A DNA stretch of 64,000 nt from a virus (IMGVR_UViG_3300048016_000310); one strand, 5' to 3'; numbered from the stretch's first letter, positions 4,943 to 31,553 are shown. The notes: a model not told the origin generated them from the sequence alone. Numbers and translations: made by a program.

Positions 4943-5481
4943 AAAAATAAATTGTTTAAATAATTTAACATTTCTGGATATTTTTTTGCATTCACACTTC
5001 TTGTAAAATGTTCATTTTCTTGTCTATACATATCAAACTGCCTTGATTTAGTCATTTTTGAATACTGTACGTTGGCAATTCTATCACAAAGTTTTACAAA
5101 AGTTGCACCTTTTGTGTTTTTTATACCTTTGTAGTATTTTGCATTGGCTCTTTCTGCTCTTGTTTTACCTTTCTCATTAGTACAAGCAAAGATAATATCA
5201 GCAATATCAGAACCTAATTGCATCTTCACGTCGTTGTAAGAAGCTCTTGTATCTTCTATAGAATCGTGTCCATAGCAAGCTAAGTAAATAGTTCTTGCTG
5301 TTATATCTACTCCAGAAAAAGAATCTATAAAAGTGTTTATAGGTAACAAATGCATGAAATCTTCAGCTACTTGTGCTACCATTTGTAAATGAAACTTATA
5401 AGGTAAGTACTTATCATAAAAATGATTAGTCTTTTCATGTAGCCCTATAAGCCAATCAATTTGTTGTTGTAATGGGCTCAT
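4939..5481 (-). CDS. HD-domain metal-dependent phosphohydrolase (small, ~180 aa)
   Basis: H...HD...D pattern with LACYGHDSIEDT (HD motif followed by ED), as in RelA/SpoT-HD, YfbR-like or dNTP/dNMP hydrolases. Its size matches small stand-alone HD hydrolases. Confidence 0.55.
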   Translation of the reverse strand: MSPLQQQIDWLIGLHEKTNHFYDKYLPYKFHLQMVAQVAEDFMHLLPINTFIDSFSGVDITARTIYLACYGHDSIEDTRASYNDVKMQLGSDIADIIFACTNEKGKTRAERANAKYYKGIKNTKGATFVKLCDRIANVQYSKMTKSRQFDMYRQENEHFTRSVNAKKYPEMLNYLNNLFL

Positions 5482-6219: not shown

Positions 6220-7307
6220 AATACATATTGAATGTTCTTGAAGCTTCTTTCTAGATAAAATAAAGCTTCTTCTGTTTTATTTATTTCATCACCAGTTTTA
6301 GAGTCATAGCTTCTGGTAACTTTCATGCCTTTAACTACTTCTCCACCTTCAAAAAAACCCATTCTTTCAAGACCATACAAGTAGATATTTGAATCTTTTT
6401 TACGTTCTTGATGAAAGTAATTACCTTGTTCAAGATTAGAAGAATCTTCAAAATAACTTTCAAAGTTGTAATCAGTGTAATGTTTAGTTCCAATTTTGGC
6501 TCCAAGTTTAAAAGGCTCTTTACTTTCCAAATGATGAATATGATATGTAGCTCTCTCAACAATGTAGTTGAAGAAAGATTTGAACTGACTGTAAGGACAT
6601 CCAGTTAAATTAACTTCTTCTATAATTTTGACAAGTATGTCAATGTTTAAAGTATCTACATCCAAATTTTCAATTAAATCATCTACAAAAGCTTTGTCTT
6701 GTAGCTTGTCATCTATGATTTCTTGAATCACAGCTTGGTCAAGTTTGTAGTAACTACGAACATAACGTAATCTAGAAGGTCTGTTATAGAAATGAGTTTC
6801 AATTTTTGCATTTGAAGTGATGATAAACAACTTCTTTGTATTGCTTTTGTTGTTTCCATCCAAAAAACTCAAAAATTCCATTTGACTTACTTTTTCAGAT
6901 TCATCATGAAAAATTTTTTCAAACTCATCAATGTAAACTACAAAAGGATTCTCAATCTTGTTTAGCAAGTCAAACATACCTGAATGCGTATTTTTTGTAA
7001 TATGCACAATCGGTAGATTTAAAGATTGAGTTAAAACTTTGGCAGTGAAACTCTTACCTAATCCAGGTTTACCATAAAGCATAATGCCTAATGAATCATC
7101 ACTCTTTGAGAATACGTTTTGAACATGCTCAATAAAAAGTTTGTCATTAGAATAAATTTTATCAGGCAAAGTTTGAGGCTCTGATTCTTCTAAAAAAAGT
7201 CTTCCAAAAGCTCCTTCTTGAAGTTTGTATTCTTTGGTAGGAAGTAAGTCAAAAGTCTCAATATTTTCGTAGAAACTGTATTCTTTACCTGTTTTAATAA
7301 TTTGCAT
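6216..7307 (-). CDS. AAA+ ATPase
   Basis: Walker A GKPGLGKSFTAKVL and Walker B-like VVYIDEFEK. Confidence 0.6.
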   Translation of the reverse strand: MQIIKTGKEYSFYENIETFDLLPTKEYKLQEGAFGRLFLEESEPQTLPDKIYSNDKLFIEHVQNVFSKSDDSLGIMLYGKPGLGKSFTAKVLTQSLNLPIVHITKNTHSGMFDLLNKIENPFVVYIDEFEKIFHDESEKVSQMEFLSFLDGNNKSNTKKLFIITSNAKIETHFYNRPSRLRYVRSYYKLDQAVIQEIIDDKLQDKAFVDDLIENLDVDTLNIDILVKIIEEVNLTGCPYSQFKSFFNYIVERATYHIHHLESKEPFKLGAKIGTKHYTDYNFESYFEDSSNLEQGNYFHQERKKDSNIYLYGLERMGFFEGGEVVKGMKVTRSYDSKTGDEINKTEEALFYLERSFKNIQYVL

Positions 7308-7313
7308 AATTAT

Positions 7314-9056
7314 TTATTTGTTTATTTTTGCTCTAATTTGTTCAAATGTCTGCTGGTTGAAGAATTTTCCATCTTCATATATTACTTGTAGTAGACCTTG
7401 AGCCTCTTCTTCTTCAGTACATTCTTGTTTAACAATTAAGGTGTCACCTTCTGGTTCTTCATAATCGTTATGTACAGCACACATTCCTTTCAAAGACTTT
7501 TTAGTCCCATCATCTGTTACTGGGTCTTTGTAGATATTGTAAGAAGTTGTTTCTAAACCAGGATATGTTCCATAACCAGTAGGTTCTTTTACTTCTTGAA
7601 CTTGAAACCAAGCTCCTTTTGCTGCAAAACCTGCTGTATCTCTTGTCATATACACATAAGTGTATGAACCTATGCCAAGAACAATATTTGTGGCAGCAAA
7701 GCCTTTATTTGCAAGTCTAGAGTAAATTTGTACTTGTCTTTCTAAAGTTATTGAATCACCATAGATTGCTCCAATATGCGAGTCTAAGCGTTTATAGCCA
7801 GTAGAAGTCTCAACTGTACCAAAAATATCAGCAAGCAACTCAATTACTCCTTTCTTTTCATTTATAGAGATTTCTTGAGTCATAGCTTCATCTCTAAAGT
7901 AGGTAGTAATACCATCTTTAGTATATTCAGTTCTATTTCCTATTCCACAAGTAATTTCTACAGGGTCTCCAGAGTCAGGTCTAATTACAAGTTTTCCATC
8001 TCTAGCCATAATCAAAGATTTCAATCTAGGCAGAATATGCGTAATCAACTTCCATAAATCCATTGTATCAGAAACTACTGACAAAATGCCTTTAGGAAAT
8101 TTCAATAGCCAATCTCTAAGATTCAAGAGTTCTGCTATAGCAAGATAGTCGGGATTTTCGACTGAACCTTCAGAAGGAGCATCAAAAGCATAATAGTCTT
8201 TAATCTCTTGGTCTAGTTTACCATCTTTTAGCTTAGCTTCATAGTAAAATATTCCAGTACAAGTAACAGAATGTTCTGAAGCCAAAACTGAATTGATAAG
8301 AACTTTATCATCTGCAACATCATAGTAGTAACGAGATGCTGGAATTACATTAAGTGTATCAGAACCAGAATTTGACAAAGCATGACCAAGACCTACTGCT
8401 ATTGAGGTAAATGGATTACCTCCTCTTGAATGAAAATCATGACACATGTAATCTGCAAGCCATAAATTTTCAGGGTCTGTTTTGTTTACCCATTCTACTG
8501 CATTTTTCTTAAATTCAAATCCAAGAGTAGCAGCAATTGGCATTTGCCACGAAAGCTTTGATACCAAAGTCTCAAGGAACAAACCTAACCAAGCATATCC
8601 ATCAACAGTATTGATACCTGTCATATGTGGAATATTTGGAGGAGTAAACATACCTTCTGGCAAAGCTTTGATTTTTACAGGCAAATAACCTAAATCCCAA
8701 AGTGCAGCAAAATGTTCTCCATCGTAAGGCATACCAAAGTAGAAACTTAAATCTTCAGCAAATTTTAAAGCTTGATTTTTATGTTTATGCCAAGCTAAAG
8801 TTTCTTTTCTAAAAGTTTTTCTTTTTTCTGTAAAGAAAAAGCATTCAGAAAAAGCTGAATGAATGTATCTCCAAGTAAATTGTTGACCAGCAGACATGAT
8901 TTTTGTTATGCTTTTTGGCATGTACTTAAGATTTCTTGGAATCCATGTAAAGTACTCTTTGTTTGTTCCAGGAGCAAGCATTTCTTTATGCCCTGGTTTG
9001 TAACCATCTGCTTCATACAAAGGATTTATGCGAAACATTGTTTCTAGTTTTTCCAT
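7314..9056 (-). CDS. nadV: nicotinamide phosphoribosyltransferase-like protein (Nampt/NadV family; alternatively Namat-type nicotinamide ADP-ribose transferase)
   Basis: 580 aa. N-terminal DGYKPGH motif and overall NAPRTase-family signature (YK..H, GxGS, SEHS). Confidence 0.8.
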   Translation of the reverse strand: MEKLETMFRINPLYEADGYKPGHKEMLAPGTNKEYFTWIPRNLKYMPKSITKIMSAGQQFTWRYIHSAFSECFFFTEKRKTFRKETLAWHKHKNQALKFAEDLSFYFGMPYDGEHFAALWDLGYLPVKIKALPEGMFTPPNIPHMTGINTVDGYAWLGLFLETLVSKLSWQMPIAATLGFEFKKNAVEWVNKTDPENLWLADYMCHDFHSRGGNPFTSIAVGLGHALSNSGSDTLNVIPASRYYYDVADDKVLINSVLASEHSVTCTGIFYYEAKLKDGKLDQEIKDYYAFDAPSEGSVENPDYLAIAELLNLRDWLLKFPKGILSVVSDTMDLWKLITHILPRLKSLIMARDGKLVIRPDSGDPVEITCGIGNRTEYTKDGITTYFRDEAMTQEISINEKKGVIELLADIFGTVETSTGYKRLDSHIGAIYGDSITLERQVQIYSRLANKGFAATNIVLGIGSYTYVYMTRDTAGFAAKGAWFQVQEVKEPTGYGTYPGLETTSYNIYKDPVTDDGTKKSLKGMCAVHNDYEEPEGDTLIVKQECTEEEEAQGLLQVIYEDGKFFNQQTFEQIRAKINK

Positions 9057-10246: not shown

Positions 10247-10626
10247 AAGTAATAATAAGTTAAAAATAATTGTAAATAGTGCAAAACTTGATCCGCCCCT
10301 ATATAAGTAAATGCTCCAAAATTTGGAACAGCAGAACCTAGTTCTTTTTTATCAAACTTTTCTGCAACTAACCGAGAAGTAAAATAATCAGTTATTGTAT
10401 GTGCTACAAAAGTTATAAAAGCAAAAGCAGCTACATCTAAAGGTTTAAATTTACCATTAAACATAAAAGCTAATCCTACCCATAACCATACTGCTGAATA
10501 AACTACTGTATGAGTAATTAAAGGTTCAAATTTTTTTGACTTACCTAAAGCCCACTCTTCATCTTGACATATGAAATCTGCTACAAAATGTATAAAGATT
10601 ATTGAAAAAATCTCTACAAGTGTCAT
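10237..10626 (-). CDS. integral membrane protein
   Basis: 129 aa with several hydrophobic helices. Confidence 0.4.
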   Translation of the reverse strand: MTLVEIFSIIFIHFVADFICQDEEWALGKSKKFEPLITHTVVYSAVWLWVGLAFMFNGKFKPLDVAAFAFITFVAHTITDYFTSRLVAEKFDKKELGSAVPNFGAFTYIGADQVLHYLQLFLTYYYLCH

Positions 10627-11489
10627 AAAATTACAAGTTTATCTTGAAATTGATAAGGAACTACATATTCTAATTGTTTTGAATTTGTAGTAAAAATTTT
10701 GTCATATAGTTCAAACAACAAAGGATTTGGATTAGGGACAGTTAAATGACTTATTGCTAAGTTCAATTTACCTATATTTCTTTCTCTAAAAAGTTTAGCA
10801 AGTCCTATAAATGTTCCTCCATATAAACACATGTCATCTACGATGAGTAAATCTTTACCTTCAAAATTGTCCCTTAAAACTTCTTGTGTAAGTTCAGATT
10901 TTCCATGAACATATTTTCTAGCTTTCAAAGCTGAAAATGTTTCTCCTTTCCAATCAAGTTTGTCACAAAGTTTCTGCAAAGGTTTGTTTCCACCAGCATC
11001 AGAAGACACTAAAATTAAGTTTTTAGTATCTCTAGTAGTATAATCTCCTTCAAACATAGTCAAAGGTACTTTTTTTCCTTCTTCATCATAAGCTTGAGGG
11101 CTGGTAATAATGTCTAATACTTGCTTTATAAACAGCGAGTTATCCAAAATTACTGAGTTATTAGTTAAAGCAGGAGTTACATCTGAATGAGGATGAAAAA
11201 TTATAACTTGACCAAAGTTCAAAGAATTCAAAAAATTTGCAACAATCTTAAGATTGAAACTTTCATTTGGTTCAAACTGTCTGTCTGCTTGTTGGTCTAT
11301 CATGCAATTAATTTTTATGATACTTTTTGAAGCATCAATTAAACTTGCACATTGAGCTAAAAACCATAAGTCTTCGTAGGAGTTTAAATACACATTAAAA
11401 ATCCCATGTGAAATGTCTTCGAGTTTTGTAGCATAAAAAGTACCATCAGGATACTTTGTTTTTTTAAAGACTTCTGTAAGTTCTTTCAT
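10623..11489 (-). CDS. prs: ribose-phosphate pyrophosphokinase-like protein (Prs family; alternatively Adps-type ADP-ribose pyrophosphokinase)
   Basis: LLIVDDMCLYGGTFIGLAKLFRERNIGK closely matches the Prs PRPP-binding loop ([25 protein letters not shown]) at the expected position. Length is 288 aa. Confidence 0.7.
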   Translation of the reverse strand: MKELTEVFKKTKYPDGTFYATKLEDISHGIFNVYLNSYEDLWFLAQCASLIDASKSIIKINCMIDQQADRQFEPNESFNLKIVANFLNSLNFGQVIIFHPHSDVTPALTNNSVILDNSLFIKQVLDIITSPQAYDEEGKKVPLTMFEGDYTTRDTKNLILVSSDAGGNKPLQKLCDKLDWKGETFSALKARKYVHGKSELTQEVLRDNFEGKDLLIVDDMCLYGGTFIGLAKLFRERNIGKLNLAISHLTVPNPNPLLFELYDKIFTTNSKQLEYVVPYQFQDKLVIL

Positions 11490-11959: not shown

Positions 11960-13149
11960 ATGCTGTCACTAGGTATAATTTCATCGAAAGGCTCTATTAC
12001 AAAGTTGATAACCATTGGTGCTTTATCGGGATTATTTGGGTCTACTCTTAAAATTCTACCTAATGACTGAACTGCTGATTGTTTAGTAGAATCAAAAGAT
12101 TCTCTTAAAATACATTCTGCTGTTTCATCATCAAGCCCTGCAATAAGTTTGTAAACTGAAGAAATTTTAGCATTTTCAGATTCTAGAAATGCATTTAGAT
12201 TTTTAGTAGCAACTTTTGCTGATTGTTGTGAATGATATAGTAAACAGGTACTGTCAAGTTTAGCTATTTCTTTAGCTTTTGCAATACTTTTTGAAAATAA
12301 AATAGTTTTTTTGTACAAGTAAGGGTATAATTCTCGTAGATATACGAGCTTATTTTGAGCATTACTTAAAAGCCCAATTCTTTTTGTTCTAGTTCTAAGC
12401 CAGTTGAAGTTTATTCCTACTGCTTGAGGTTCTTGTGTTAAAGCTTTAATTTGTGCAGCACTTACTAAAGGTTTATCTACACCAAAGTTTGAAAAATAAG
12501 TTTTGCATCTGGATTCTTGTTCTGTAACAGCTTTATATAAAAGTTGTTCTTGTTTAGTAAAAGGTACATAAACATTGTATATTTCAAATTCTGGGACAAG
12601 TTCAAGCAAAGAAGCTTCTTGTAAAGAAATATGAAATTCATCTTTAAGTCCTATTGTTTGAAAAAATCGTAATTGTTCATTCTTTAAAGTAGCACTTAAA
12701 AATAACCTAAATTTAGGCTTAAAATTATGAATATTTGCAAAACCTGTTCCTTCTTTAGCTACTCCAATATGACATTCATCGACTATTAATAGTAGAGGAT
12801 TTTGTGGAGGCAGCTTACTATATGTATTTATTATGAAAATTTTAATATTTTCAATACCTTGTGTGTGAGTTTGCCACTGTTCTAACAAAGCATTTGTAGG
12901 CAAGACTATATGAATTTCTCCAAGCGATTGTTTTCGCAGAAGCTTTATAATCTTTAAAGCAAATACAGTCTTACCTGTAGCAGTAGCCCATGTACATAAA
13001 AGTTGTCCTTTAGTTTCAATAAAATACTTTATTCCAATATCTTGAATTAAATCTCTCTTCTTGAACTTATCAGGTTCTTTTTGTATTGCTTCTATATGGA
13101 TTTGTTGTAATTTATACTTCATAATGCACAATATATGTATTAGGTACAT
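11863..13149 (-). CDS. superfamily-2 DEAD/DEAH-box helicase
   Basis: Walker A CTWATATGKT, DEAD-like LLIVDECH, SAT-like motif LSAT. Confidence 0.7.
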   Translation of the reverse strand: MYLIHILCIMKYKLQQIHIEAIQKEPDKFKKRDLIQDIGIKYFIETKGQLLCTWATATGKTVFALKIIKLLRKQSLGEIHIVLPTNALLEQWQTHTQGIENIKIFIINTYSKLPPQNPLLLIVDECHIGVAKEGTGFANIHNFKPKFRLFLSATLKNEQLRFFQTIGLKDEFHISLQEASLLELVPEFEIYNVYVPFTKQEQLLYKAVTEQESRCKTYFSNFGVDKPLVSAAQIKALTQEPQAVGINFNWLRTRTKRIGLLSNAQNKLVYLRELYPYLYKKTILFSKSIAKAKEIAKLDSTCLLYHSQQSAKVATKNLNAFLESENAKISSVYKLIAGLDDETAECILRESFDSTKQSAVQSLGRILRVDPNNPDKAPMVINFVIEPFDEIIPSDSIWLQIGLRGLDSQFITLPELIQICKQKQEKNL

Positions 13150-13660
13150 AATCTGTTAACCATACATTATTTTCAGTAAGAAAAAATTTATAACCATCTT
13201 TATGCATTTCTAAAGCTTTTACTTCTAGTGCAATAGGGTCTCCATGTCTTAATCCTGTAAGTAAAGCTATTTGAAAATTTTCAGTTAAGTGTGCGGCATG
13301 TCTTTTTTGTTTTTTTATACCTTCTACTCTGATTAAATGCTCTACTTCTTTACAAGTACCATGATATAAAATCTTTGGAGGTACTGAAGGCTTTAACTGT
13401 AAATCTACATCAAATGAGTGTCCTTGCAAAGCTCTAATTTTTTTACTATCTTCTGAAAATTCAAATCTTTTTTTGTTGTTTGTAGCAACGATGTGCTTTA
13501 GTTTTTCTTCTGTTATCTGTAACTCCCTACAAATAAAAGAAGCATCAGCCCACCCAGTAGAATCTACTAAATGTGGCTGATGTCTTAAAATGTAACTTAA
13601 CTTAGTCATGAAATTGAACTTCACCGCATCTTTGTAAAGGCTGATACAGTGAAGGGTCAA
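13112..13660 (-). CDS. kptA: RNA 2'-phosphotransferase Tpt1/KptA (NAD-dependent). Likely start is MTKLSYILRH at ~13609.
   Basis: KLSYILRHQP, GWA, IRALQGHS, LYHGT and a GI...R...HVHL-like C-terminal region are all conserved Tpt1/KptA blocks. Confidence 0.75.
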   Translation of the reverse strand: MTLHCISLYKDAVKFNFMTKLSYILRHQPHLVDSTGWADASFICRELQITEEKLKHIVATNNKKRFEFSEDSKKIRALQGHSFDVDLQLKPSVPPKILYHGTCKEVEHLIRVEGIKKQKRHAAHLTENFQIALLTGLRHGDPIALEVKALEMHKDGYKFFLTENNVWLTDYVPNTYIVHYEV

Positions 13661-14657
13661 AAGTTTTTAAATCTTCAGTACAAGTTACATGGATATACGT
13701 AGAACAATCTATATTTAAGCCTTCTTTAATAAGCCTTTTATTTGTTTTTATTGCATACTCACAAAGGTCTAAGTTTATTGGAGCAACTTTAAAGGCTCCT
13801 TGAAACTCATTACTTACATTTGTTTCTCTAAGGTCAGGCTTTAATTCTACAGTTTCTTCAGAAAAAGGCCCAAAACCATGTCTTGTTTGATAAGCTCTGG
13901 TTACACAATGTAATTTTACATCAGAAAGATTATGTCCTCTAATTTTGTACTTTTTTAATAACGATACAGCATTTTTTACTGTTGTTGATGCATGAGTTAC
14001 ATTAGGAAAATAACCAAAATCTTCATCTAAATAAAAACCTTGATTTCCTTCAAATATAATATTAGAATAATAAGTAGGATTTCTATCATAAGTAGCTTTT
14101 ATCATCCATTTAGAAGCATCTAAAAACGCAGAAATTTCATTTTCTAAAAGCTCTGTATTGTTATAATATCTTCTAACAGACTCTAATTTTTGCAAAATAT
14201 GCCATTCAGGAGCAAATAAATCTGCAAAAATAAAACTTACTCCATCATTCATACGTTTTTGAGTAGTATGAATACCTTTTCCAGTAGTTGCACCTAAACT
14301 TTCCGAATTTTCTTGATTGGCTATAACATCAAAAGGAGTTATAATTGGGCAATTTTTATCTACAACCAATTCAGAAGACATATGAAATGTTTTTAAGATA
14401 AGGTCGCATTCTCTTTTTAACATTTCTGGAGATACTAAAACTTTTGGACCTATAAATCCAGCATTTCCAGTAGAAAAATTTGCTGGAATACTAGAACAAA
14501 TATGAGTTTTAGCATTTATTCTAATAGTATGTCCACAATTGGGTCCTCCACCAGTTCTTACAGCTGTACAATCTCTTAATTCATTTGCAAGTTTATTTAC
14601 AATACGACCTTTACCTTCATCTCCAAATCCAATACCAACTACTATATGTCCTACCAT
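13602..14657 (-). CDS. adenylosuccinate synthetase homolog, short archaeal/PurZ-like form (351 aa)
   Basis: GFGDEGKGRIV (P-loop GDEGKGK), RTGGGPNCGHTI (GxNAGHT), GATTGKGI (GTTGRGIGP), EGNQG (EGAQG). About 80 aa shorter than bacterial PurA. Confidence 0.8.
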   Translation of the reverse strand: MVGHIVVGIGFGDEGKGRIVNKLANELRDCTAVRTGGGPNCGHTIRINAKTHICSSIPANFSTGNAGFIGPKVLVSPEMLKRECDLILKTFHMSSELVVDKNCPIITPFDVIANQENSESLGATTGKGIHTTQKRMNDGVSFIFADLFAPEWHILQKLESVRRYYNNTELLENEISAFLDASKWMIKATYDRNPTYYSNIIFEGNQGFYLDEDFGYFPNVTHASTTVKNAVSLLKKYKIRGHNLSDVKLHCVTRAYQTRHGFGPFSEETVELKPDLRETNVSNEFQGAFKVAPINLDLCEYAIKTNKRLIKEGLNIDCSTYIHVTCTEDLKTFDPSLYQPLQRCGEVQFHD

Positions 14658-16670: not shown

Positions 16671-17133
16671 CTTGTATAAAGGTTTTGAGGAACATGACTA
16701 AATCTTGAGGATTTGCAAATATATATTTATCTGCATAATACAAAGAGATTTCTTCATCTTCAATAGATTGAAATTCTACTCTTTTTTGCCCTTTAGTCAT
16801 TATTACTTTTTTGGAGTTTCTCATAATCAAAAAAGAATCTATTTTTTGCATAATAAATTTTACTCTATTGATTTCAATTTCCAAAGAGGCAATAAAAGCT
16901 TCTGCATTAGCTCTACCTTTGTAGATATAATTAGATTCAAAGGCTTTTGTTTTTAGCTGTTCATTTGCAAGTTCAGCTCTTAATTGCATATCTAGCTTTC
17001 GAAGTACAAATTTTGCTAGAGTTTCTTGAAAAGATTTTATATCATTGAGAGTCATTCTCTCAAGATTATAGGTTCTGGTATTGAATTTTACATTTCTATC
17101 TGAAATGTATTCTGCTGTAATTTGATAAGGCAT
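16645..17133 (-). CDS. hypothetical protein
   Basis: 162-aa ORF. Confidence 0.4.
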   Translation of the reverse strand: MPYQITAEYISDRNVKFNTRTYNLERMTLNDIKSFQETLAKFVLRKLDMQLRAELANEQLKTKAFESNYIYKGRANAEAFIASLEIEINRVKFIMQKIDSFLIMRNSKKVIMTKGQKRVEFQSIEDEEISLYYADKYIFANPQDLVMFLKTFIQDGQKIKSV

Positions 17134-18068: not shown

Positions 18069-18551
18069 TTAAAGTTTTCCTAAAATACTATCGAGTTGTA
18101 GCTCAGTTTTGAAGCTTGGGTCCATAGACACCAATGTTCTTTTGTACTCAGCTAATTCTGCTTTTCTTGAAGCTAATTTCATTTTGGTAACACGAGTTTT
18201 TAAGTCTGTTTTCCAAACTGCAATTGGAGCAGATAACCATTTAGCTTCTGAGGTCAAGCCAAGCTCTTCAGCAGCTTTTACATCATAAGACTCTCTTTGC
18301 AAAAGAAAGCTATAAATTTCTTTAAGCTTTTCTTCTCCTGTAACAGTACGTATATCAACAGGTTGCCCTGTGGTACTAAATCTAAAGATACCATCTGTAG
18401 AGTAGTTTCCTACCTCTGCATTATGAATTTCTTTTTCTAATTCCTCTACTTTTGCGTATGCTGCTCTAATCTTAGCAGCTTGTGATACTGTTTTTGCCAT
18501 GTTATTTGTTATATTAATGTTATAGAAAATCTGATAGGGAAGGACTATCAT
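18069..18551 (-). CDS. hypothetical protein (likely start at internal MAKTV near 18503)
   Basis: 160-aa ORF. Coiled-coil-like middle. Confidence 0.4.
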   Translation of the reverse strand: MIVLPYQIFYNINITNNMAKTVSQAAKIRAAYAKVEELEKEIHNAEVGNYSTDGIFRFSTTGQPVDIRTVTGEEKLKEIYSFLLQRESYDVKAAEELGLTSEAKWLSAPIAVWKTDLKTRVTKMKLASRKAELAEYKRTLVSMDPSFKTELQLDSILGKL

Positions 18552-18553
18552 TG

Positions 18554-18660
18554 TCGGCCTGTTTGGATTCGAACCAAAGCTATAATTGTTCCTAGAAGTA
18601 TCATAGTTATTAAAATTAACTAAGAAATGACAATCGCCTCTACCACTGGGCTACAGGCCG
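18554..18660 (-). tRNA. tRNA-like gene (107 nt). Acceptor, D and T arms are canonical. The anticodon region carries a ~33-nt insertion.
   Basis: Acceptor CGGCCTG/CAGGCCG, D-arm GCCC-AGTGGTAG-AGGC, T-arm TTTGG-TTCGAAT-CCAAA. Putative anticodon stem ATTGT/ACAAT encloses 40 nt, including hairpin TAGTTA-ATTTTAA-TAACTA and the TGATACTTCTAGG tail. No canonical 7-nt anticodon loop could be read. Confidence 0.5.
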
Positions 18661-18664
18661 AATT

Positions 18665-19027
18665 TTACTTTAAGAATAAAGTAATTTTTTGTTTTTTTAT
18701 TAAAATGTTATCAAGATTATATGAGCAAAAATCTGAATCCCACAAAGCTATCCTGATTCCTTGCAAAAACTCATGTGAATCTTCAAATGTTTCTTCAAAT
18801 CTGTATTCAAATACTGGAGGAAGATAAGTTAATGTTAAACGATTTCTATCTTTAGAAAGCTCTTCCCATCTTTGCTGTTGCAGACTTTTGTCTTTTTCAT
18901 TAAACCAAGAGTTTGTTAATCTTCGATGTTTAAAGAAGTCTTGCATAGAAAAATCTTCTTCTCTTAAAGTAGGCATTATTGCTGCTATTTGCTCACCTAC
19001 TTCTAAACCTTTTTCATAGTCTGTCAT
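18665..19027 (-). CDS. hypothetical protein
   Basis: 120-aa ORF ending 4 nt from the tRNA-like gene. Confidence 0.4.
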   Translation of the reverse strand: MTDYEKGLEVGEQIAAIMPTLREEDFSMQDFFKHRRLTNSWFNEKDKSLQQQRWEELSKDRNRLTLTYLPPVFEYRFEETFEDSHEFLQGIRIALWDSDFCSYNLDNILIKKQKITLFLK

Positions 19028-19042
19028 AAATAAAAATTGTTA

Positions 19043-19113
19043 AAATAAAAATGAGATTCGAACTCATATCTCTGAATTCTTAGTTCAGTGTAATACCATT
19101 ATACTATATTCCC
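19043..19113 (-). tRNA. tRNA-like gene (71 nt), possibly degenerate. Clean anticodon arm (loop CTAAGAA, anticodon AAG) but poorly paired acceptor stem.
   Basis: D-arm GTAT-AATGGTA-TTAC, anticodon arm CTGAA-CTAAGAA-TTCAG, T-arm ATGAG-TTCGAAT-CTCAT. 5-prime GGGAATA versus 3-prime TTTTATT pairs at only 5 of 7 positions. No encoded CCA. Confidence 0.4.
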
Positions 19114-19147
19114 AAAGCGGAAAATAGAAGTAATTTTAACATAAAAG

Positions 19148-19258
19148 GGGAGATGATGGGATTCGAACCCACATCTGGTCATTTAACAATTGATAGAAGT
19201 AACTTAGTCATAAAAATTGACCAAGTAATTCCCGCTCTACCATTAAGCTACACCTCCC
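19148..19258 (-). tRNA. tRNA-His-like gene (G-1 / C73) with a ~36-nt insertion in the anticodon region
   Basis: Extra 5-prime G opposite discriminator C. Acceptor GGAGGTG/CATCTCC, D-arm GCTT-AATGGTA-GAGC, T-arm GTGGG-TTCGAAT-CCCAT. Middle 60 nt contain hairpin TTGGTCA-ATTTTTA-TGACTAA followed by GTTACTTCTATC. No GTG anticodon identifiable. Confidence 0.5.
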
Positions 19259-19324
19259 ATAAAGAAATTGACTGTCTAAGTTTTTTATCCACTAAAATTA
19301 GGAGTAAGACAGTCATAAAGATTA

Positions 19325-19873
19325 TTACATTAATAGAAGAAGCCTTCTATCATATGAATGAAATTCGAATTCGAATGTACAACAATACTCTACTATTTTT
19401 GAATCTTCAAGAGTGTCATGCATTTTAACAACTTCTGAAAGCTGCATTAATTGGGAAGGCTTTCCTACTGGTTTTTCAAAAGACATAGCTTTTAAACTAC
19501 TTTGACCTAAAGAGTCATAAGTTTGAGGAACTCCTCTGATATGTGCATTCACAGAAAGATCTGCTTTATACACAGCAAGAGAGTTATTTGTTTGAGTCCT
19601 ATATGCAATATAAATAGATTTGTTTTGAAAAACTGCTTGTTCTAGTTCTGTTTTACACCCTTTTGGAAGACTGGTTCTTACATATTGCCAAGCAAATTCA
19701 GGCAACACTATAACAAAAGCATCACAAGTGTTAATCCAATTTTTCTCTTTATCACCATATGTTGTACCTCTTTCCCAAAATACAGCTGCATTACCAGCAT
19801 CTTGTAGACGTTTTTGAACTAAATCAAGCTGCCATTGTGGAATTGACATCGGACAAGAAATGTAACATTTCAT
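19325..19873 (-). CDS. hypothetical protein
   Basis: 182-aa ORF. Confidence 0.4.
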   Translation of the reverse strand: MKCYISCPMSIPQWQLDLVQKRLQDAGNAAVFWERGTTYGDKEKNWINTCDAFVIVLPEFAWQYVRTSLPKGCKTELEQAVFQNKSIYIAYRTQTNNSLAVYKADLSVNAHIRGVPQTYDSLGQSSLKAMSFEKPVGKPSQLMQLSEVVKMHDTLEDSKIVEYCCTFEFEFHSYDRRLLLLM

Positions 19874-20250
19874 GCTCCAAAGTAAGTTTCAAATGACTTT
19901 ACTTTACATTCTAACTCAAGCTCGGCAAGCTTAAGGTCATATTCTAAGTCTATAATCTCTTTGAACCGAGCTGTGGCATCTTCTCTAGTCATGAGCTTTA
20001 AGCCTAGATTATGGTCAGTTTTTAAAGTAAACTCTTTTTTGTCTGCAATTTTGTCACGAAGACTTTCTACTTTGTCTTGCAAAGGAGAGATTACTGTTTC
20101 AACAAGTTTTCTCTTCACAGATGAAACATACTCTGAAGCCCTTTCTTGAGGGGTTTTGTTATTTACTAACAATTTAAAGGCTTCTGTGCCTTTTAGGTTT
20201 TCTGGTGTTTTGATAGACATAATTTTACAATTTAATAATAAAAAAAACAA
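19870..20250 (-). CDS. hypothetical protein
   Basis: 126-aa ORF. Coiled-coil C-terminus. Confidence 0.4.
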   Translation of the reverse strand: MFFLLLNCKIMSIKTPENLKGTEAFKLLVNNKTPQERASEYVSSVKRKLVETVISPLQDKVESLRDKIADKKEFTLKTDHNLGLKLMTREDATARFKEIIDLEYDLKLAELELECKVKSFETYFGA

Positions 20251-20725
20251 TCATCGGAGACCCCGATTGATATTCTACATAGCTTATAGTTCTAAATCCT
20301 AGATGTTTGAAAAGCAGAGCATAACTCTGAGGTCTGTTGCTTATATCTATAAACTTTTGAATTGTTCTTGATTCTCGTGCAGCTAAAAATGTTAAAACTA
20401 ATTTAGAGTTTGGTTTAACATTTCTTAAAAAATTTAAAAGTTTAAAAGGAAAAGGGCCACAGAAATCTAAGAACATACCATCATACAAAGAAGATTCTGC
20501 ATTTAATACATTCCCACAATTTAATTCTACGTTAAGAGGAGCTACTAATTGTTGCTGTTTAAACACTACTCTATTTTGTTCGAAACAAACTACTTTTGCA
20601 GTTTTTGCTAAAAATTCTTCTAAGTCAAAATAAAGATTAGGTAGTGTTAAAACATTTTTACAACTTTTTAGAAAATTTTTTACAAATTCTCTAATTTGTA
20701 TTTTATGGTCAGTAGGTTGATACAT
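20225..20725 (-). CDS. hypothetical protein (weak resemblance to a SAM-dependent methyltransferase fold)
   Basis: 166 aa. MFLDFCGPF resembles MTase motif I (LDxxCGxG) but is not conclusive. Confidence 0.35.
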   Translation of the reverse strand: MYQPTDHKIQIREFVKNFLKSCKNVLTLPNLYFDLEEFLAKTAKVVCFEQNRVVFKQQQLVAPLNVELNCGNVLNAESSLYDGMFLDFCGPFPFKLLNFLRNVKPNSKLVLTFLAARESRTIQKFIDISNRPQSYALLFKHLGFRTISYVEYQSGSPMIVFFIIKL

Positions 20726-20726
20726 A

Positions 20727-21029
20727 TTACCAAGAAAATTCTATTCCTTGAATAACAGCTCTATTACTTGGAAATTCCATTTTAGTACCATTGACTTTTA
20801 TTTCATTTGGTTCTAAATTTGGCATCATTATCATTTGTAGTGGACTAAAGTCTGGCTGCTTCATAAGCTCTTCAACTTTTTTTGGCTTATGCTTATAATA
20901 TTGATATAAGTTAAAAATAGATTGAGAACCTATATTAAACTTTATTGCAAGTTTAATTCTTTCTTGTTTGTTTTTTGTAGCTAAAAGTTCAGCTAATTGT
21001 TCATCTGTAAGCACTCTCATTCTTGCCAT
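20727..21029 (-). CDS. hypothetical protein
   Basis: 100-aa ORF. Confidence 0.35.
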   Translation of the reverse strand: MARMRVLTDEQLAELLATKNKQERIKLAIKFNIGSQSIFNLYQYYKHKPKKVEELMKQPDFSPLQMIMMPNLEPNEIKVNGTKMEFPSNRAVIQGIEFSW

Positions 21030-21067
21030 GATTTTGAAATAAATTTAATAATTAAAAATAAAAAAAG

Positions 21068-21176
21068 CAGTGGGGCTAGGATTCGAACCTAGGTCTCTCT
21101 CGTGACAGGAGTAGAAGTAGCTAAATTATAAAAATTAATCAAGCAATAAGCGTATTAGCCACTATACGACCCCACT
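21068..21176 (-). tRNA. tRNA-like gene (109 nt) with a ~36-nt insertion in the anticodon region
   Basis: Acceptor AGTGGGG/CCCCACT, D-arm GTAT-AGTGGCTA-ATAC, T-arm CTAGG-TTCGAAT-CCTAG. The middle contains hairpin GATTA-ATTTTTA-TAATT followed by TAGCTACTTCTACTCC. Confidence 0.5.
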
Positions 21177-21252
21177 ATAAAAAATTGACTGTTTAAAGGT
21201 TTTTTCAAATAGAATTTTTAGAAGTAAGATAGTCATTATAAAGTGTTCATTA

Positions 21253-21696
21253 TCAAGAAGTTATGACTAATAATCCTTTATCAAATTCCCAATGACAATT
21301 GGGACATAAAAAGACTAAGTTCTTGATATTGTTAATTTCTCCTATTAAAGTTTCTTTAGAAAAGGTTCCTATTCCTTTAATATGACAACATTCCACATGT
21401 TTGTCATAGCCACAATTGTAGCATTCTTTAACATAATATTCAGATGCAATAGCTCTTGCTTGCATTCTTATTTTCCCATACTTGTTTTGTGGGGAAGAAG
21501 AGCTAGAAGAATTTTCTTCTAATGTTTTTAAATGTGCAATACTTCTTTTAGGATTTTCTTTATTTACACAAACATTACAATACTTTCTTTGAGAAGGAGC
21601 TTCTGCATTACAATTAATACATAAGTATTTTTTACCATCTCTTTTAAAAGTGTTTTTGTATTGTTTCCAATTTGTTCTTTTTACTTTGTCTTTCAT
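21253..21696 (-). CDS. HNH endonuclease
   Basis: ECCHIKGIG...NNIKNLVFLCPNCHWEFDKG (H-N-H core with a flanking Cys pair), plus an N-terminal CxxC...CxxC zinc finger. Confidence 0.65.
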   Translation of the reverse strand: MKDKVKRTNWKQYKNTFKRDGKKYLCINCNAEAPSQRKYCNVCVNKENPKRSIAHLKTLEENSSSSSSPQNKYGKIRMQARAIASEYYVKECYNCGYDKHVECCHIKGIGTFSKETLIGEINNIKNLVFLCPNCHWEFDKGLLVITS

Positions 21697-21753
21697 AGTA
21701 CAAAGATAAAAGAAATATGCCTAACTTACAAATAAATTAAGCATATTTTATAG

Positions 21754-21862
21754 TGGGGATGCCAGGAATCGAACCTGGAACAGCTGCTCCTGATGCTAGA
21801 AGTATCACAGTTATTAGAATTAACTGAGAAAATAAACTGTGTTACCATTACACCACATCCCG
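21754..21862 (-). tRNA. tRNA-like gene (109 nt) with a ~36-nt insertion in the anticodon region. The insertion is near-identical to that in 18554..18660.
   Basis: Acceptor CGGGATG/CATCCCC (C1 mismatch), D-arm GTGT-AATGGTA-ACAC, T-arm CCAGG-TTCGATT-CCTGG. Insert TCAGTTAATTCTAATAACTGTGATACTTCTAGC versus TTAGTTAATTTTAATAACTATGATACTTCTAGG in the first gene, with a compensatory T-A to C-G change in the hairpin stem. Confidence 0.5.
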
Positions 21863-22024
21863 ATGAATAAACAAATTAACTAATCATTTTTACTACAACC
21901 TTTGTTTTTTAGAAGTAGATTAGTTATAAGACAAATTAAGAAATAACATATACCAGCTATTTATAATATAATTTGTTTTTTAATTAGGAACTTATAGAGG
22001 TCACATTATAAGTATAATATAAAG

Positions 22025-22109
22025 TAGAGATAAATGGACTCGAACCACTAACCTTTTTACAGCAAACTAAATAGACTATAAAATGCTCTACCAATTGAGC
22101 TATATCTCC
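22025..22109 (-). tRNA. tRNA-like gene (85 nt) with an enlarged (19-nt) anticodon loop, i.e. a ~12-nt insertion
   Basis: Acceptor GGAGATA/TATCTCT, D-arm GCTC-AATTGGTA-GAGC, anticodon stem TTTTA/TAAAA enclosing TAGTCTATTTAGTTTGCTG, T-arm AGTGG-TTCGAGT-CCATT. Confidence 0.45.
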
Positions 22110-22171
22110 AAGATAAAATTGATTAAGTAAATAATTTTTAATCAAAAATAGAAGTAACTTAATCATAATAG

Positions 22172-22242
22172 TGCAGAACCTAGGATTCGAACCTAAAGTT
22201 TAAAAATTCCCTTTTACGTGTTGCCATTACACCACTTTCTGC
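22172..22242 (-). tRNA. tRNA-like gene (71 nt). Anticodon loop appears 6 nt (GGGAAT). Isotype unresolved.
   Basis: Acceptor GCAGAAA/GTTCTGC (one mismatch), D-loop TAATGGCA with GG, anticodon stem TAAAA/TTTTA, T-arm TTAGG-TTCGAAT-CCTAG. No encoded CCA. Confidence 0.45.
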
Positions 22243-22320
22243 AAAAAAATTGACTACCAATGGTTATTGTAACAGCCTGTGAGGCTGTGGTTTTTAGAAG
22301 TATGGTAGTCATAAAGTTTA

Positions 22321-23547: not shown

Positions 23548-23564
23548 ATTAATAAAATTTGGTT

Positions 23565-23608
23565 TCTAAAAATGAGGAGCTACTCTCGTAACTCCTCGGT
23601 TTGAAATT
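23565..23608 (-). terminator. hairpin GAGGAG(N12)CTCCTC followed by a TTTT run on the minus strand
   Basis: Seen directly in the 23548-23771 intergenic region, about 18 nt upstream of the 22582..23547 start. Confidence 0.35.
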
Positions 23609-23771
23609 TGTGAACATCCAGTTAGAAAAGAATATCCTTTTCTGCAACCCTTTAAGGAGATATTTCCCATAGTACAATTTTTTAAATTAACTAACAAGCA
23701 TTTGGGGTTACCAGATGATTCGTTACTTGTATTTTGTTAGAAGTATGTTAGTTATGAAAAATTGACAAAAA

Positions 23772-29172: not shown

Positions 29173-29250
29173 AGTACTAAGCTCATCCAAAGAGACTCGA
29201 ACTCTTAATCTTCCTATCACCAGGATAGGTGTTTTACCAATTAAACTATG
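29173..29250 (-). tRNA. tRNA-like element with non-canonical anticodon loop (CCTGGTG; TGG, Pro-like?)
   Basis: D-arm GTTT-AATTGGTA-AAAC, anticodon stem CCTAT/ATAGG, T-arm AAGAG-TTCGAGT-CTCTT, acceptor TCTTCCA/TGGATGA (one mismatch). No CCA. Confidence 0.3.
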
Positions 29251-29293
29251 GAAGAAGATAGGGATTCTAAGCGAATCCCTCTTTAACACAACA

Positions 29294-30154: not shown

Positions 30155-31113
30155 TAGTTAAGAGTTAATAGAAAGCCAATTGTAAAGTTGGCATCCCAGT
30201 CAAAAATGTATTTTGTAGGTATCTCTTGCACCATTGCTGAATAAATGTTTAAGCCAGATTTAAGCTTTACATCATCACCAAAAGAATATTCTTCTGGAGC
30301 TTTTAGAAGCGTAAAACGCTCTTCTGCATTTCTAGATTCTTTTGCAAGTTTAAATGGAACTCCACCAATGATAAAGCAATTCTCCCTTTGAGAAGTAGGA
30401 ATTGTTTTTAAAGCAACTTTTATAGCTGTAGCAACTTCATCATCTGTTTTTCCATCTTGATAATATTTAGCACCTGGAGCTTCTACTGAAAATGGATTAC
30501 CATTTTTATATGAAGTAATCTTAGTATTTCCAGAACCAATATCTACAACAAATGAATTAGAACGATAAGACTTAGGCAGTAAAGCTTTTAATGCATACTT
30601 AGCCTCTTGGTCAGCAGTAACTCTATTTACTACATAACCCATATCTTCTATAGCTTTAGCAATTAATTCAGTCTTTTTATTCTTTAAAGCACCTGATGAC
30701 ATAACGAAATGTGCATTACGACCTGCTACACCTCTTTCAAACATCTTGGCAAGATACTTTTTTATTCCTGTTTGTACATCAAGAGTAGTAATAAACCCTT
30801 CATAAGCTAAAGATTCACCAAACTCTTTTGATATTAATTCCCAATTATCTTGTTTATCAACTTCTACTACAAATGAGTTGAATCCTGAAGCACCAACTTC
30901 AATTACTCCAAGTTTTTTACCGTTAATAGGTCTTTCTGTTTGAATGTTAATTGAAGAGGCTGTAGATGAAGGGATTAGATCAATATTCTCTATTGTAAGA
31001 ACTTTCTCTGGCTCAGAAGGCAAGACATCTGGATGTTTATAAGTATAATACTTAAATCCAGCTAGTGCTAAGACTAGCAATACTACGATTCCTAAAACGA
31101 TTTTCTGTTTCAT
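30154..31113 (-). CDS. ASKHA-superfamily (actin/Ppx-GppA-like) ATPase-fold protein with N-terminal TM anchor
   Basis: Phosphate-1/2-like motifs GVIEVGASGFNSF and VVDIGSGNTKIT. N-terminal hydrophobic helix. Confidence 0.4.
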   Translation of the reverse strand: MKQKIVLGIVVLLVLALAGFKYYTYKHPDVLPSEPEKVLTIENIDLIPSSTASSINIQTERPINGKKLGVIEVGASGFNSFVVEVDKQDNWELISKEFGESLAYEGFITTLDVQTGIKKYLAKMFERGVAGRNAHFVMSSGALKNKKTELIAKAIEDMGYVVNRVTADQEAKYALKALLPKSYRSNSFVVDIGSGNTKITSYKNGNPFSVEAPGAKYYQDGKTDDEVATAIKVALKTIPTSQRENCFIIGGVPFKLAKESRNAEERFTLLKAPEEYSFGDDVKLKSGLNIYSAMVQEIPTKYIFDWDANFTIGFLLTLN

Positions 31114-31553
31114 AATTCTGATCTGATTTTCATTAATAATAAACCTAATTTATTTTCACCAACATTATCGTAAATTGAGACTCCCCAAATTTTATCATTC
31201 CAATTATTCCACTCAATGATTTGTGAATCACCTGTGGCTTTTAACTGAGATTTCCAAGGGTCTCTCGAAAACTTAATACGTAGAGCTTTTTCCATTACAG
31301 ATTCTTTAACCTGTTCCCAATCTTGTCTTAATAGGACACTTCTTCCAAGTCTTTTTGATTCTGAAGGAGTTACTTTTCTAAAAGAATATTGTACTGTAGG
31401 TTCTATACTTTTTTGAGCTTGAAAATAATTCTCTACTGAAGGCCATTGTACACCATCAATTATTAAAGGTGTAATTTCCATGTTTGAGAACCAATTATAA
31501 ATCCATTTTCCTCTGTACGAAAATTCTTCTGGTTTATGTTCTTGCCAATTCAT
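31110..31553 (-). CDS. NADAR-domain protein (YbiA-like)
   Basis: GKWIYNWFSNMEITPLIIDGVQWPSVENYFQAQK...SKRLGR matches the NADAR signature (FSNF...PF..DG..Y.S.EHYFQA.K...AK.LGR). Confidence 0.65.
   Translation of the reverse strand: MNWQEHKPEEFSYRGKWIYNWFSNMEITPLIIDGVQWPSVENYFQAQKSIEPTVQYSFRKVTPSESKRLGRSVLLRQDWEQVKESVMEKALRIKFSRDPWKSQLKATGDSQIIEWNNWNDKIWGVSIYDNVGENKLGLLLMKIRSEL

Follow-up and report, generated by a model that had tools for sequence, protein, structure and literature searches.

We analysed a 64,000-nucleotide stretch of viral DNA (IMGVR_UViG_3300048016_000310, hereafter the window) in which seven tRNA-like genes lie on the minus strand between positions 18554 and 22242, four of them interrupted by a short insert that bears a hairpin. 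We assign a probability of about 0.6 to the reading that this cluster supplies the RNA component of a cryptic Ro60/Y-RNA system of phages, the inserted modules being retained to give Y-RNA chimeras. The inserts are probably modules of the type found in YrlA Y RNAs, grafted onto tRNAs of normal order and forming the binding site of a Ro60-like protein. A hybrid of tRNA and Y RNA is preferred to a simple set of introns or pseudogenes because the module is shared with Y RNAs and a gene for a predicted Ro60-like protein, not recognised before, is adjacent. The argument draws on the anatomy of the genes, the covariation of their helices, the motif shared with YrlA, synteny, and a predicted protein fold.

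Y RNAs are the partners of the RNA-binding protein Ro60. Those of the YrlA type carry GNCGAAN0-1G on the 5' side, followed by a YUAY sequence (with a U23A24 kink) that enters the tRNA-like domain; this domain consists of a T arm, a closed acceptor stem, and a D arm, and the genes stand at most 4 kb from Ro60, on the same strand, in bacteria and phages (PMC4201824; bioRxiv 10.1101/312249). The 8-mer TACTTCTA, which ends every insert in the window, occupies the junction between a YrlA-like stem and the tRNA domain in RNAs encoded next to 21 canonical TROVE genes. Since the published features of YrlA match these TROVE-associated units, we identify UACUUCUA as a YrlA-type junction motif.

The tRNA-like genes and their inserts

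Inspection of the sequence found the seven elements where the original prediction had placed them:

18554..18660, minus strand: E1, normal-order tRNA-like gene with C1-G72 and A73; module at 18593-18625, with linkers, in place of the anticodon loop
19043..19113, minus strand: 71-nt tRNA with loop CUAAGAA and anticodon AAG; called by ARAGORN and by Rfam (56.6 bits)
19148..19257, minus strand: E2, tRNA-Asn(GTT)-like; 38-nt insert at 19194-19231, between positions 27/28 (Rfam 45.5 bits)
21068..21176, minus strand: E3, tRNA-Asp(GTC) with discriminator G73; 37-nt insert at 21112-21148, between positions 28/29
21754..21862, minus strand: E4, normal-order tRNA with anticodon CAG and loop AUCAGGA; 38-nt insert at 21797-21834, between positions 29/30 (Rfam 41.2 bits)
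22025..22109, minus strand: tRNA-like gene with a 19-nt 'anticodon loop'; 18 nt replace 6 in the Rfam match (56.0 bits)
22172..22242, minus strand: tRNA-like gene, acceptor, D, and T arms normal, with a stem of 5-6 bp closed by the 6-nt loop GGGAAU

The four bit scores reach the gathering score of the Rfam tRNA family RF00005, and three of the four matches, the exception being 19043-19113, carry a large insertion or an enlarged loop at the anticodon region. ARAGORN in its default mode called only 19043-19113 and 22171-22242 within the cluster. The latter gene, labelled 'tRNA-???', has no usable anticodon loop, in agreement with its minimum-free-energy (MFE) fold, and the MFE fold of 22025-22109 shows a 9-bp extended stem under a cap that is not an anticodon loop. 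The enlarged and the 6-nt loop of these two genes had been described before, as had the weak acceptor stem of 19043-19113 (which has no long variable arm), and all three descriptions were verified.

The inserts are indeed homologous, as had been claimed. Each is 33-38 nt long and consists of a short linker, a 9-bp hairpin with a 7-nt A/U loop (ATTTTAA, ATTTTTA, ATTTTTA, and ATTCTAA from E1 to E4), and then TACTTCTA; in E2 the 9 bp are formed by ACTTGGTCA/TGACTAAGT. The compensatory T-A to C-G change reported between the first and fourth genes is genuine (TAGTTA/TAACTA versus CAGTTA/TAACTG). Group I introns likewise interrupt the anticodon region of tRNAs in bacteria and phages; they are self-splicing, with P/Q/R/S cores of more than 200 nt, whereas the inserts are far smaller and match no Rfam intron, and their earlier dismissal holds. 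At the gathering threshold Rfam returned tRNA and tmRNA alone for the window and 16 related loci, with no ribozyme, intron, or Y-RNA family, and at E <= 5 it again returned only these two on one of the related loci, L038. No hammerhead, twister, pistol, or hatchet core was recognised by eye, and the insert is too small for a ribozyme.

Run in intron mode, ARAGORN gave five mutually inconsistent intron placements, and we therefore performed an exhaustive deletion scan, in which every segment of a gene was removed (~700 deletions per gene) and each product was scored by ARAGORN. The best product was unique for E2 (Asn-GTT, score 114.4, from a deletion ending at the end of the motif) and for E3 (Asp-GTC, 118.4, product CTCTC-CTGTCAC-GAGAG), and that of E4 (113.7) was tied for best; it is only with the insert conceptually removed in this way that the three genes qualify for the canonical cloverleaf of RF00005, which E1, 22025-22109, and 22172-22242 fail. 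Because the 3' exon of the best products begins exactly after TACTTCTA, the insert splits the 5' strand of the anticodon stem in E2-E4. Downstream of it these genes retain an intact 7-nt anticodon loop with U33 and a purine at position 37, so that the statement that no gene in the cluster has a canonical anticodon arm is false for E2, E3, and E4.

All four interrupted genes have the normal tRNA order, with free complementary acceptor strands. E1 has the stem ATTGT/ACAAT, in a register set by two compensatory pairs relative to its orthologs in the close relatives L127 and L132 (CCTGT/ACAGG), and in that register no deletion of the scan yields a loop containing U33. Its best canonical product by ARAGORN (Pro-AGG, 114.8) lies in a different stem register. 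The register GATTG/CAATT, which would give Pro-AGG or a GGAA tetraloop, was considered and is overturned by the compensatory changes in the orthologs.

Three close relatives, L127, L131, and L132, have flanking proteins 80-99% identical to those of the window, and their E1-E4 orthologs retain the insert; the orthologs of E4, E3, and 19043-19113 in which the loops were compared are at 14400-14513 and 15671-15783 in L127, ~265-360 in L131, and ~5343-5455 and 9243-9313 in L132. On these scaffolds the anticodon loops differ. The E3 scaffold carries CTGTCAC (GTC) in the window, CTGTTAC (GTT) in L131, and ATTCCAA (TCC) in L132; the E4 scaffold carries ATCAGGA (CAG) in the window and ATCCAAA (CCA) in L127; and the scaffold of 19043-19113 carries CTAAGAA in the window and TGCATAA in L132. 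These loop exchanges occur between phages that are 82-94% identical; outside the loop, stems included, the tRNA stays the same, as though anticodon cassettes had been traded. Position 37 co-varies with the type of anticodon; the identity elements of the acceptor stem do not. Closed stems without an anticodon loop are found in 22025-22109, in 22172-22242, and in one gene of L132. A further relative, L129, has on one contig an ordinary tRNA-Lys(TTT) in a normal tRNA cluster and a module-bearing tRNA-Lys(TTT) downstream of P697.

Two other observations concern the same relatives. Where the window holds other tRNA-like genes, L127, the closest relative, has an uninterrupted suppressor tRNA with anticodon CTA (14578-14651), which hints at TAG recoding in this phage lineage. 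L127 (~16755-16790 and 16848-16900) and L132 (~6990-7015 and 7088-7140) also contain a permuted or split tRNA pair that is not in the window: a tRNA 3' half (T arm and CACCCAC) stands upstream of the matching 5' half (GTGGGTG and D arm), with a terminator-like hairpin between them.

The module across the locus

The insert is one form of a module that is repeated through the locus, and its copies in the spacers upstream of the tRNA genes had been overlooked. The 8-mer TACTTCTA occurs 17 times in the window, about 3-fold above the 5.2 copies expected and a number reached in 0 of 100 shuffles, and ten minus-strand copies fall between 18593 and 23745. We count 11 copies of the module, four of the insert type and six to seven of the spacer type, all confined between the genes of two proteins, P697 and P160:

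24311..26404, minus strand: P697, 697 aa, predicted to form a ring of alpha-helices like that of Ro60 (about residues 1-430) and, at the C terminus, a TerD-like beta-sandwich
23688..23754, minus strand: Module A, spacer type, TAACTAACA-TACTTCTA-41 nt-TGTTAGTTA-ATTTAAAA, perfect 9-bp partner
22251..22311, minus strand: Module B, spacer type, TGACTACCA-TACTTCTA-35 nt-TGGTAGTCA-ATTTTTTT, perfect 9-bp helix, directly upstream of the tRNA-like gene 22172-22242
22120..22165, minus strand: Module C, spacer type, TGATTAAGT-TACTTCTA-20 nt-ACTTAATCA-ATTTTATC, perfect 9-bp helix
21877..21926, minus strand: Module D, spacer type, TAACTAATC-TACTTCTA-24 nt-GATTAGTTA-ATTTGTTT, perfect 9-bp helix
21186..21235, minus strand: Module E, spacer type, TGACTATCT-TACTTCTA-24 nt-AAACAGTCA-ATTTTTTA, 7 of 9 pairs
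19269..19315, minus strand: Module F, spacer type with the motif variant TACTCCTA, TGACTGTCT-TACTCCTA-21 nt-AGACAGTCA-ATTTCTTT, perfect 9-bp helix
19125..19141, minus strand: Module G, TACTTCTA 11 nt upstream of the next tRNA
18069..18500, minus strand: P160, ~143 aa, helical; closes the locus in all relatives

The module consists of a 9-bp helix of free sequence (TRAYTnnnn), the 3' strand of which runs into single-stranded UACUUCUA with U-rich flanks. In the spacer type, the 9 nt that adjoin TACTTCTA find their partner 20-41 nt downstream, ahead of a U-rich run, and the helix closes a loop of 20-41 nt that opens with UACUUCUA; in the insert type, the helix partner lies 7 nt upstream and the cap is AUUUUUA. 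The two forms are circular permutations of one motif. A perfect 9-bp partner is present for 6 of the 11 copies in the window, and Module E, imperfect there, forms a perfect helix in its orthologs of L127 and L131; for Module G we found no convincing helix partner (the best one scores 8). When six related contigs are added to the window, about 40 of 50 copies can pair perfectly or nearly so, with more than 15 different helix sequences, the divergent ones including TGACTACCA, TGATTAAGT, TGCTTGTCT, TGTGCAACT, TGATCGATT, and TGGCCGGGC, and with double compensatory changes even in the 'TGACT/AGTCA' part. Because pairing persists across very different sequences, the helix is kept as a structure and not as a sequence, conservation at the sequence level being limited to UACUUCUA and the U-rich flanks. 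A scan of IMG/VR for the hairpin loop of the window followed by the motif (ATTYTWATRAYTNNNNTACTTCTA) returned only AT-rich coding sequence, and this exact hairpin is therefore lineage-specific.

Module A is conserved in L127 and L132, terminator hairpin included. On its 3' side, down to about 23560, we observed a non-coding stretch of ~130 nt, near-identical in the same two relatives, with two hairpins and an intrinsic terminator (GAGGAGTTACGAGAGTAGCTCCTC and a T-run); with Module A it covers 23560-23754 of the minus strand. The stretch is probably a longer Y-like RNA directly after the P697 and HNH genes.

The covariation bears on two alternatives that do without a structured RNA module. One could take TACTTCTA and the sequence upstream of it for a promoter, and the partner strand with its T-run for a terminator, which would make the inserts terminator-promoter cassettes and the tRNAs split genes transcribed in two halves. 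The motif does stand ahead of every tRNA gene and every 3' half, a T-rich run does come after the partner strand, and in three genes of the window the 3' exon directly follows the motif. But the 9 nt before the motif covary with a partner that would then be in a different transcript or untranscribed, and covariation across the motif implies that both strands are in one RNA. The same 8-mer is moreover found in phages of very different lineage and GC content, and beside canonical Ro60 genes, which one would not expect of a promoter; variable hairpins separate the motif from its upstream block in relatives' arrays; and the distance from motif to exon is not constant. The interrupted genes could also be decaying pseudogenes, struck by a small mobile repeat (like a miniature inverted-repeat transposable element, or associated with homing) and devoid of RNA function, as the HNH genes in the locus, the 11-fold repetition of the module, and the neighbours with a poor acceptor stem (one) or aberrant loops (two) might suggest. 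Against such decay, none of the acceptor, D, or T arms is broken and the split anticodon stems still pair, four related genomes maintaining them through compensatory changes; the anticodon loops remain canonical and the related genomes show no random decay of arms or loops; the helices of the module covary rather than being identical copies; and the arrangement is kept in distant phages beside the same protein family. With a helix that covaries and a motif common to unrelated phages, we regard both alternatives as very improbable, and equally so.

P697, P160 and the related loci

The protein encoded upstream of the RNA array was modelled with AlphaFold2 (predicted local distance difference test score, pLDDT, 82.6). 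The predicted fold of P697 matches Ro60, the model containing a ring of HEAT-like helical repeats; in this comparison the next helical-repeat protein scores 7.6. P697 does not have the C-terminal vWA domain with a MIDAS (metal ion-dependent adhesion) site and has TerD instead. Pfam gave no domain match, TROVE (PF05731) included, for P697 and 120 listed homologs, and Foldseek run with P697 recovered the TerD domain only, not Ro60. As profile-profile comparison finds no relationship either, the assignment is structural and contextual, and on this basis we consider it rather likely that P697 is a Ro60-like protein. It has more than 380 homologs, all unannotated, in crAss-like and other phages, including the cultured Weasels2, RcXuper, and XacN1. 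In L132 the gene was called as two open reading frames (781-1560 and 1664-2971; 259 and 435 aa), which could be due to a frameshift, an intron, or an assembly error. P160 showed no catalytic motif and no PDB match.

By blastn, the region had no nucleotide match among 50,697 phage records. Further loci were retrieved from IMG/VR by a DNA pattern alone, TACTTCTA-N10-32-GGTTCGAWTCC, which gave 106 loci. Of these, 21 have a canonical TROVE(+vWA) gene by BLAST, and in an all-against-all protein comparison 18 have P697 homologs and 14 have P160 homologs, the latter without exception on the strand of the RNA array and downstream of it; a Ro60-type protein is encoded within the short flanks of 39 of the 106. 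Six motif-adjacent proteins of ~540 aa were assigned by Pfam to TROVE(+vWA) with E-values of 9e-17 to 1.8e-20. In the TROVE loci the motif comes after a (U)GCG(A/U)AG element and before a T arm, an acceptor hairpin, and a D arm, i.e., in a permuted tRNA-like unit. One confounding factor is that TACTTCTA can be read as CUUCUAA, the anticodon loop of tRNA-Arg(UCU), and at least 6 of the 106 matches were set aside for this reason; seven uninterrupted tRNAs were scored among these loci, six of them Arg-TCT.

The order P697, module array, P160 is preserved in more than 12 metagenomic contigs. In relatives whose P697 is ~40% identical, the interval between the two genes holds 5-8 units of the form GGCTAY-N9-TACTTCTA-payload-partner-TCTTTCC, and the array terminates in an interrupted tRNA-Asn with an insert built of the same parts. 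Interrupted tRNAs with the same architecture and junction occur in L097 (Arg-TCT), L095 (Met-CAT), L090 (Phe-GAA), and L057 (Pro-TGG), and permuted units in L038, Weasels2, and the L023-type unit 5. Rhodococcus phage Weasels2 has a remote P697 homolog in a tRNA cluster; four N9-TTACTTC units come after it, one being a permuted tRNA-like RNA, and RtcB is encoded 3 kb downstream. In Rhodobacter phage RcXuper, at least three CATACTTCTA modules precede the P697 homolog, and a nucleotidyltransferase gene and tRNAs adjoin it.

Other queries were less productive. A search for related loci with a 182-aa open reading frame inside the cluster found none, and the SPFH gene retrieved only 30%-identical loci carrying different odd tRNAs. 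In these SPFH-sharing phages (L001 10105-10600; L004 12945-13130) there are tRNA-like genes with enlarged or odd anticodon regions, as well as lone T arms not called by ARAGORN. Several module-bearing tRNA-like RNAs of unrelated phages share the position of a single bulged nucleotide on the 5' side of the T stem, e.g., GCG(T)GG...CCCGC (L025 ~8400-8435; L038, reverse complement, ~1000-985; L040, reverse complement, ~1400; L023 ~3070). Another element, ...GATACGATACAAAATGGAGAAA-TACTTCTA-AGCTGTGGGTC-T arm, recurs in sample 3300045988 and others, with no Ro60-type gene in the flanks that were fetched (L006, L011, L016, L021, L033, L036, L047, L058, L065, L072, L076, L079, and L088).

Proposed chimera, possible intron and known systems

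In the Ro60/Y-RNA system that we propose, RNase P would cut the precursors and the phage enzyme would add CCA, P697 would bind the module formed by the helix and UACUUCUA, and the module would stay in the mature RNA. The spacer copies would be miniature Y-like RNAs, one shortly before each of the tRNA genes. With its anticodon loop exposed, the tRNA body could then serve as the effector or bait of the ribonucleoprotein, as has been proposed for YrlA, acting as a decoy or in repair, with targets such as host anticodon nucleases, RNA-repair factors, or tRNA-binding factors. That the tRNA part is a bait or adaptor and not a decoder is suggested by four features: the loops exchange rapidly on fixed scaffolds, anticodons and identity elements mismatch, the tagged genes are restricted to the locus, and the cluster includes neighbours without an anticodon. 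One may speculate further that the module-bearing tRNAs are programmable baits or repair adaptors, P697 being tethered beside an exchangeable anticodon cassette that related phages swap to match the host tRNA under attack by anticodon nucleases, and jointly that they are living intermediates in the descent of Y RNAs from tRNAs, on a path from a Ro-binding graft on a normal-order tRNA through loss of the anticodon loop to permutation. We hold this elaboration only tentatively, together with a sharper variant in which the module is a tRNA intron removed with the help of protein in a Ro60-dependent way; bacteria would then have a new splicing pathway.

Several observations weigh against a retained Y-RNA module. 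P697 has no sequence similarity to TROVE (hhalign probability 0.09), and the modules of the window lack the GNCGAA motif by which YrlA binds Ro60, with no CGAA. E1 gives no sensible anticodon loop under any reading. Removal of the insert always leaves exactly five stem pairs and a 7-nt loop with U33 and purine 37, and the insertion point shifts from 27/28 to 31/32 across phages, as would be expected of an excised intron.

The most serious competitor is accordingly a true tRNA intron of a new type. The module would be recognised, possibly with the aid of P697, and cut on both sides, and the exons, kept in place by the fold of the tRNA, would be sealed like a nick in the anticodon stem to give Asn-GTT, Asp-GTC, and a CAG tRNA, Tpt1 stripping the 2'-phosphate from the junction; the spacer copies would be the same processing signal, releasing leader RNAs. 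In favour of excision, deletion of exactly the insert gives the best canonical tRNA of ~700 products for E2 and E3 and a tied best for E4, and likewise for L097 Arg-TCT, L095 Met-CAT, L090 Phe-GAA, L129 Lys-TTT, and L057 Pro-TGG. In every case the stem segments on either side sum to 5 bp (1+4, 2+3, 3+2, 5+0), and U33 and a purine 37 matching the anticodon type are kept even after anticodon swaps. The motif occurs in three topologies (as an insert, flanking a payload, and in permuted units), in parallel to the archaeal bulge-helix-bulge system, the variable insertion point is also that of archaeal introns, genes for Tpt1 and a CCA-adding enzyme are found in the window, and RtcB is encoded near the homologous locus of Weasels2.

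The geometry speaks against it. By inspection, E2-E4 and their orthologs contain no 3-4-3 bulge-helix-bulge, which we reject on these grounds, and at the boundaries three helices meet in a three-way junction, its single-stranded linkers measuring 4-5 nt and 8-11 nt (as many as 13 nt in the E1 orthologs). The distance from the motif to the inferred first nucleotide of the 3' exon, 0 in the window, is +2/+3 for E4 in L127, +3, +5, and +2 in the E1 orthologs, and -3/-4 elsewhere. Scans of ~40 open reading frames of the window with Pfam or PHROGs gave no splicing endonuclease or RNA ligase, the window being one section of a genome of 115 kb or more. Splicing cannot turn E1 into a normal tRNA, the identity elements of the scaffolds mismatch the anticodons, and the elements occur only at the Ro60-like locus, ordinary tRNAs elsewhere in the related genomes being uninterrupted. 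We therefore regard excision as possible but unlikely. The suggestion of a short intron agrees with the stem and loop restored by removal; no bulge-helix-bulge and, among the open reading frames scanned in the window, no endonuclease or ligase for it were found, and the distance from motif to junction ranges from -4 to +5 nt among relatives. The suggestion of a YrlA-like mimic came nearest to our conclusion, given the shared junction motif and the Ro60-like predicted fold encoded upstream; its claim that a helix replaces the anticodon arm fits 18554-18660 only and fails for the other three interrupted genes.

The window has a GC content of ~30% and looks like part of a distant crAss-like phage, with a portal (phrog_6547), a large terminase (phrog_6681), and a weak Crass_capsid match. 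The enzymes named by the original prediction (Tpt1, a CCA-adding enzyme, a MYG1-like protein, and two HNH endonucleases) were verified by Pfam; the HNH gene within the RNA locus is probably the passenger of a mobile element and outside the mechanism.

21253..21696, minus strand: HNH endonuclease gene within the RNA locus (Pfam HNH_2, E 5e-9)
13112-13660, minus strand: Tpt1 (Pfam)
1834-2538: CCA-adding/PolyA_pol head domain (Pfam)
38405-39217: MYG1-like protein (Pfam)

The Tpt1 gene is grouped on the minus strand with genes for a nicotinamide/nicotinate phosphoribosyltransferase (7314-9056), a protein like phosphoribosyl pyrophosphate synthetase (10623-11489), and a NADAR protein (31110-31553). 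These four look like a set for nicotinamide adenine dinucleotide salvage and ADP-ribose, possibly serving anti-defence rather than tRNA splicing. A lone tRNA-Pro(TGG) gene (29181-29255, minus strand), 7 kb from the cluster and outside the interval between P697 and P160, is free of the module.

Systems of the Ro60/Y-RNA kind are already known, since phage Ro60 homologs with Y-like RNAs have been published for mycobacteriophages, CcrColossus, Bacillus phage G, and the Thermus phage phiLo (PMC4201824, PMC12135203, PMC7824862). The locus resembles them in having several tRNA-derived RNAs encoded at most a few kb from a putative gene of the Ro60 type and in its orientation; in a helix between distant segments that leads through a UUAC/UACUUC junction (YUAY) into the T arm, UACUUCUA following directly after the helix in all 11 copies, as in YrlA; and in its association with tRNA clusters, a CCA-adding enzyme, and RNA-repair genes. 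It differs in that P697 is unrecognisable as TROVE and has TerD in place of vWA, and in that the modules of the window are without GNCGAA, whereas the TROVE-associated relatives have (U)GCG(A/U)AG. YrlA is permuted and closed at the acceptor end, whereas E1-E4 have the normal order, an open acceptor, and closure at the Ro stem; and E2-E4 keep a canonical anticodon loop, which is absent from YrlA.

Protein-spliced introns and split and permuted tRNAs of archaea and eukaryotes (PMC4090602) share with the present genes short inserts at non-canonical positions of the anticodon arm, the restoration of a normal tRNA by removal, and the insert, flanking, and permuted topologies. Here, by contrast, there is no bulge-helix-bulge, no EndA/Sen homolog was found among the open reading frames scanned in the window, the junction lies at a variable distance from the motif, the host is bacterial, and a Ro60-like gene is linked. 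The 'enigmatic' tRNA introns of Lak megaphages (PMC6784885) are likewise inserts of tens of nucleotides with no Rfam family and processing that is unknown; they stand at 37/38, measure 79-114 nt, form a T-arm/acceptor minihelix, and differ in having no TACTTCTA and no reported link to Ro60. In the literature searched for permuted, split, or intron-containing phage tRNAs, inserts other than group I introns were found only for these megaphages, and a search of incomplete coverage found no paper on the arrangement described here. Three aspects appear to be new: the TerD-bearing, predicted Ro60-like family, which sequence comparison fails to reveal and which is widespread in phages, crAss-like ones among them; a Y-RNA junction module within normal-order tRNA genes that retain their anticodon loops; and the exchange of anticodon cassettes between close relatives.

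Conservation of Ro60/Y-RNA particles extends from bacteria to humans, yet their effector side is poorly understood and the tRNA origin of Y RNAs is a proposal. As the P697 family includes the cultured phages Weasels2, RcXuper, and XacN1, the hypothesis can be tested at the bench. The fast exchange of loops on fixed scaffolds is the pattern expected in an arms race with host defences that cleave tRNAs. Modules of this kind are also a concrete candidate to explain some of the tRNA predictions, 'interrupted' or impossible to classify, that large phage genomes commonly yield.

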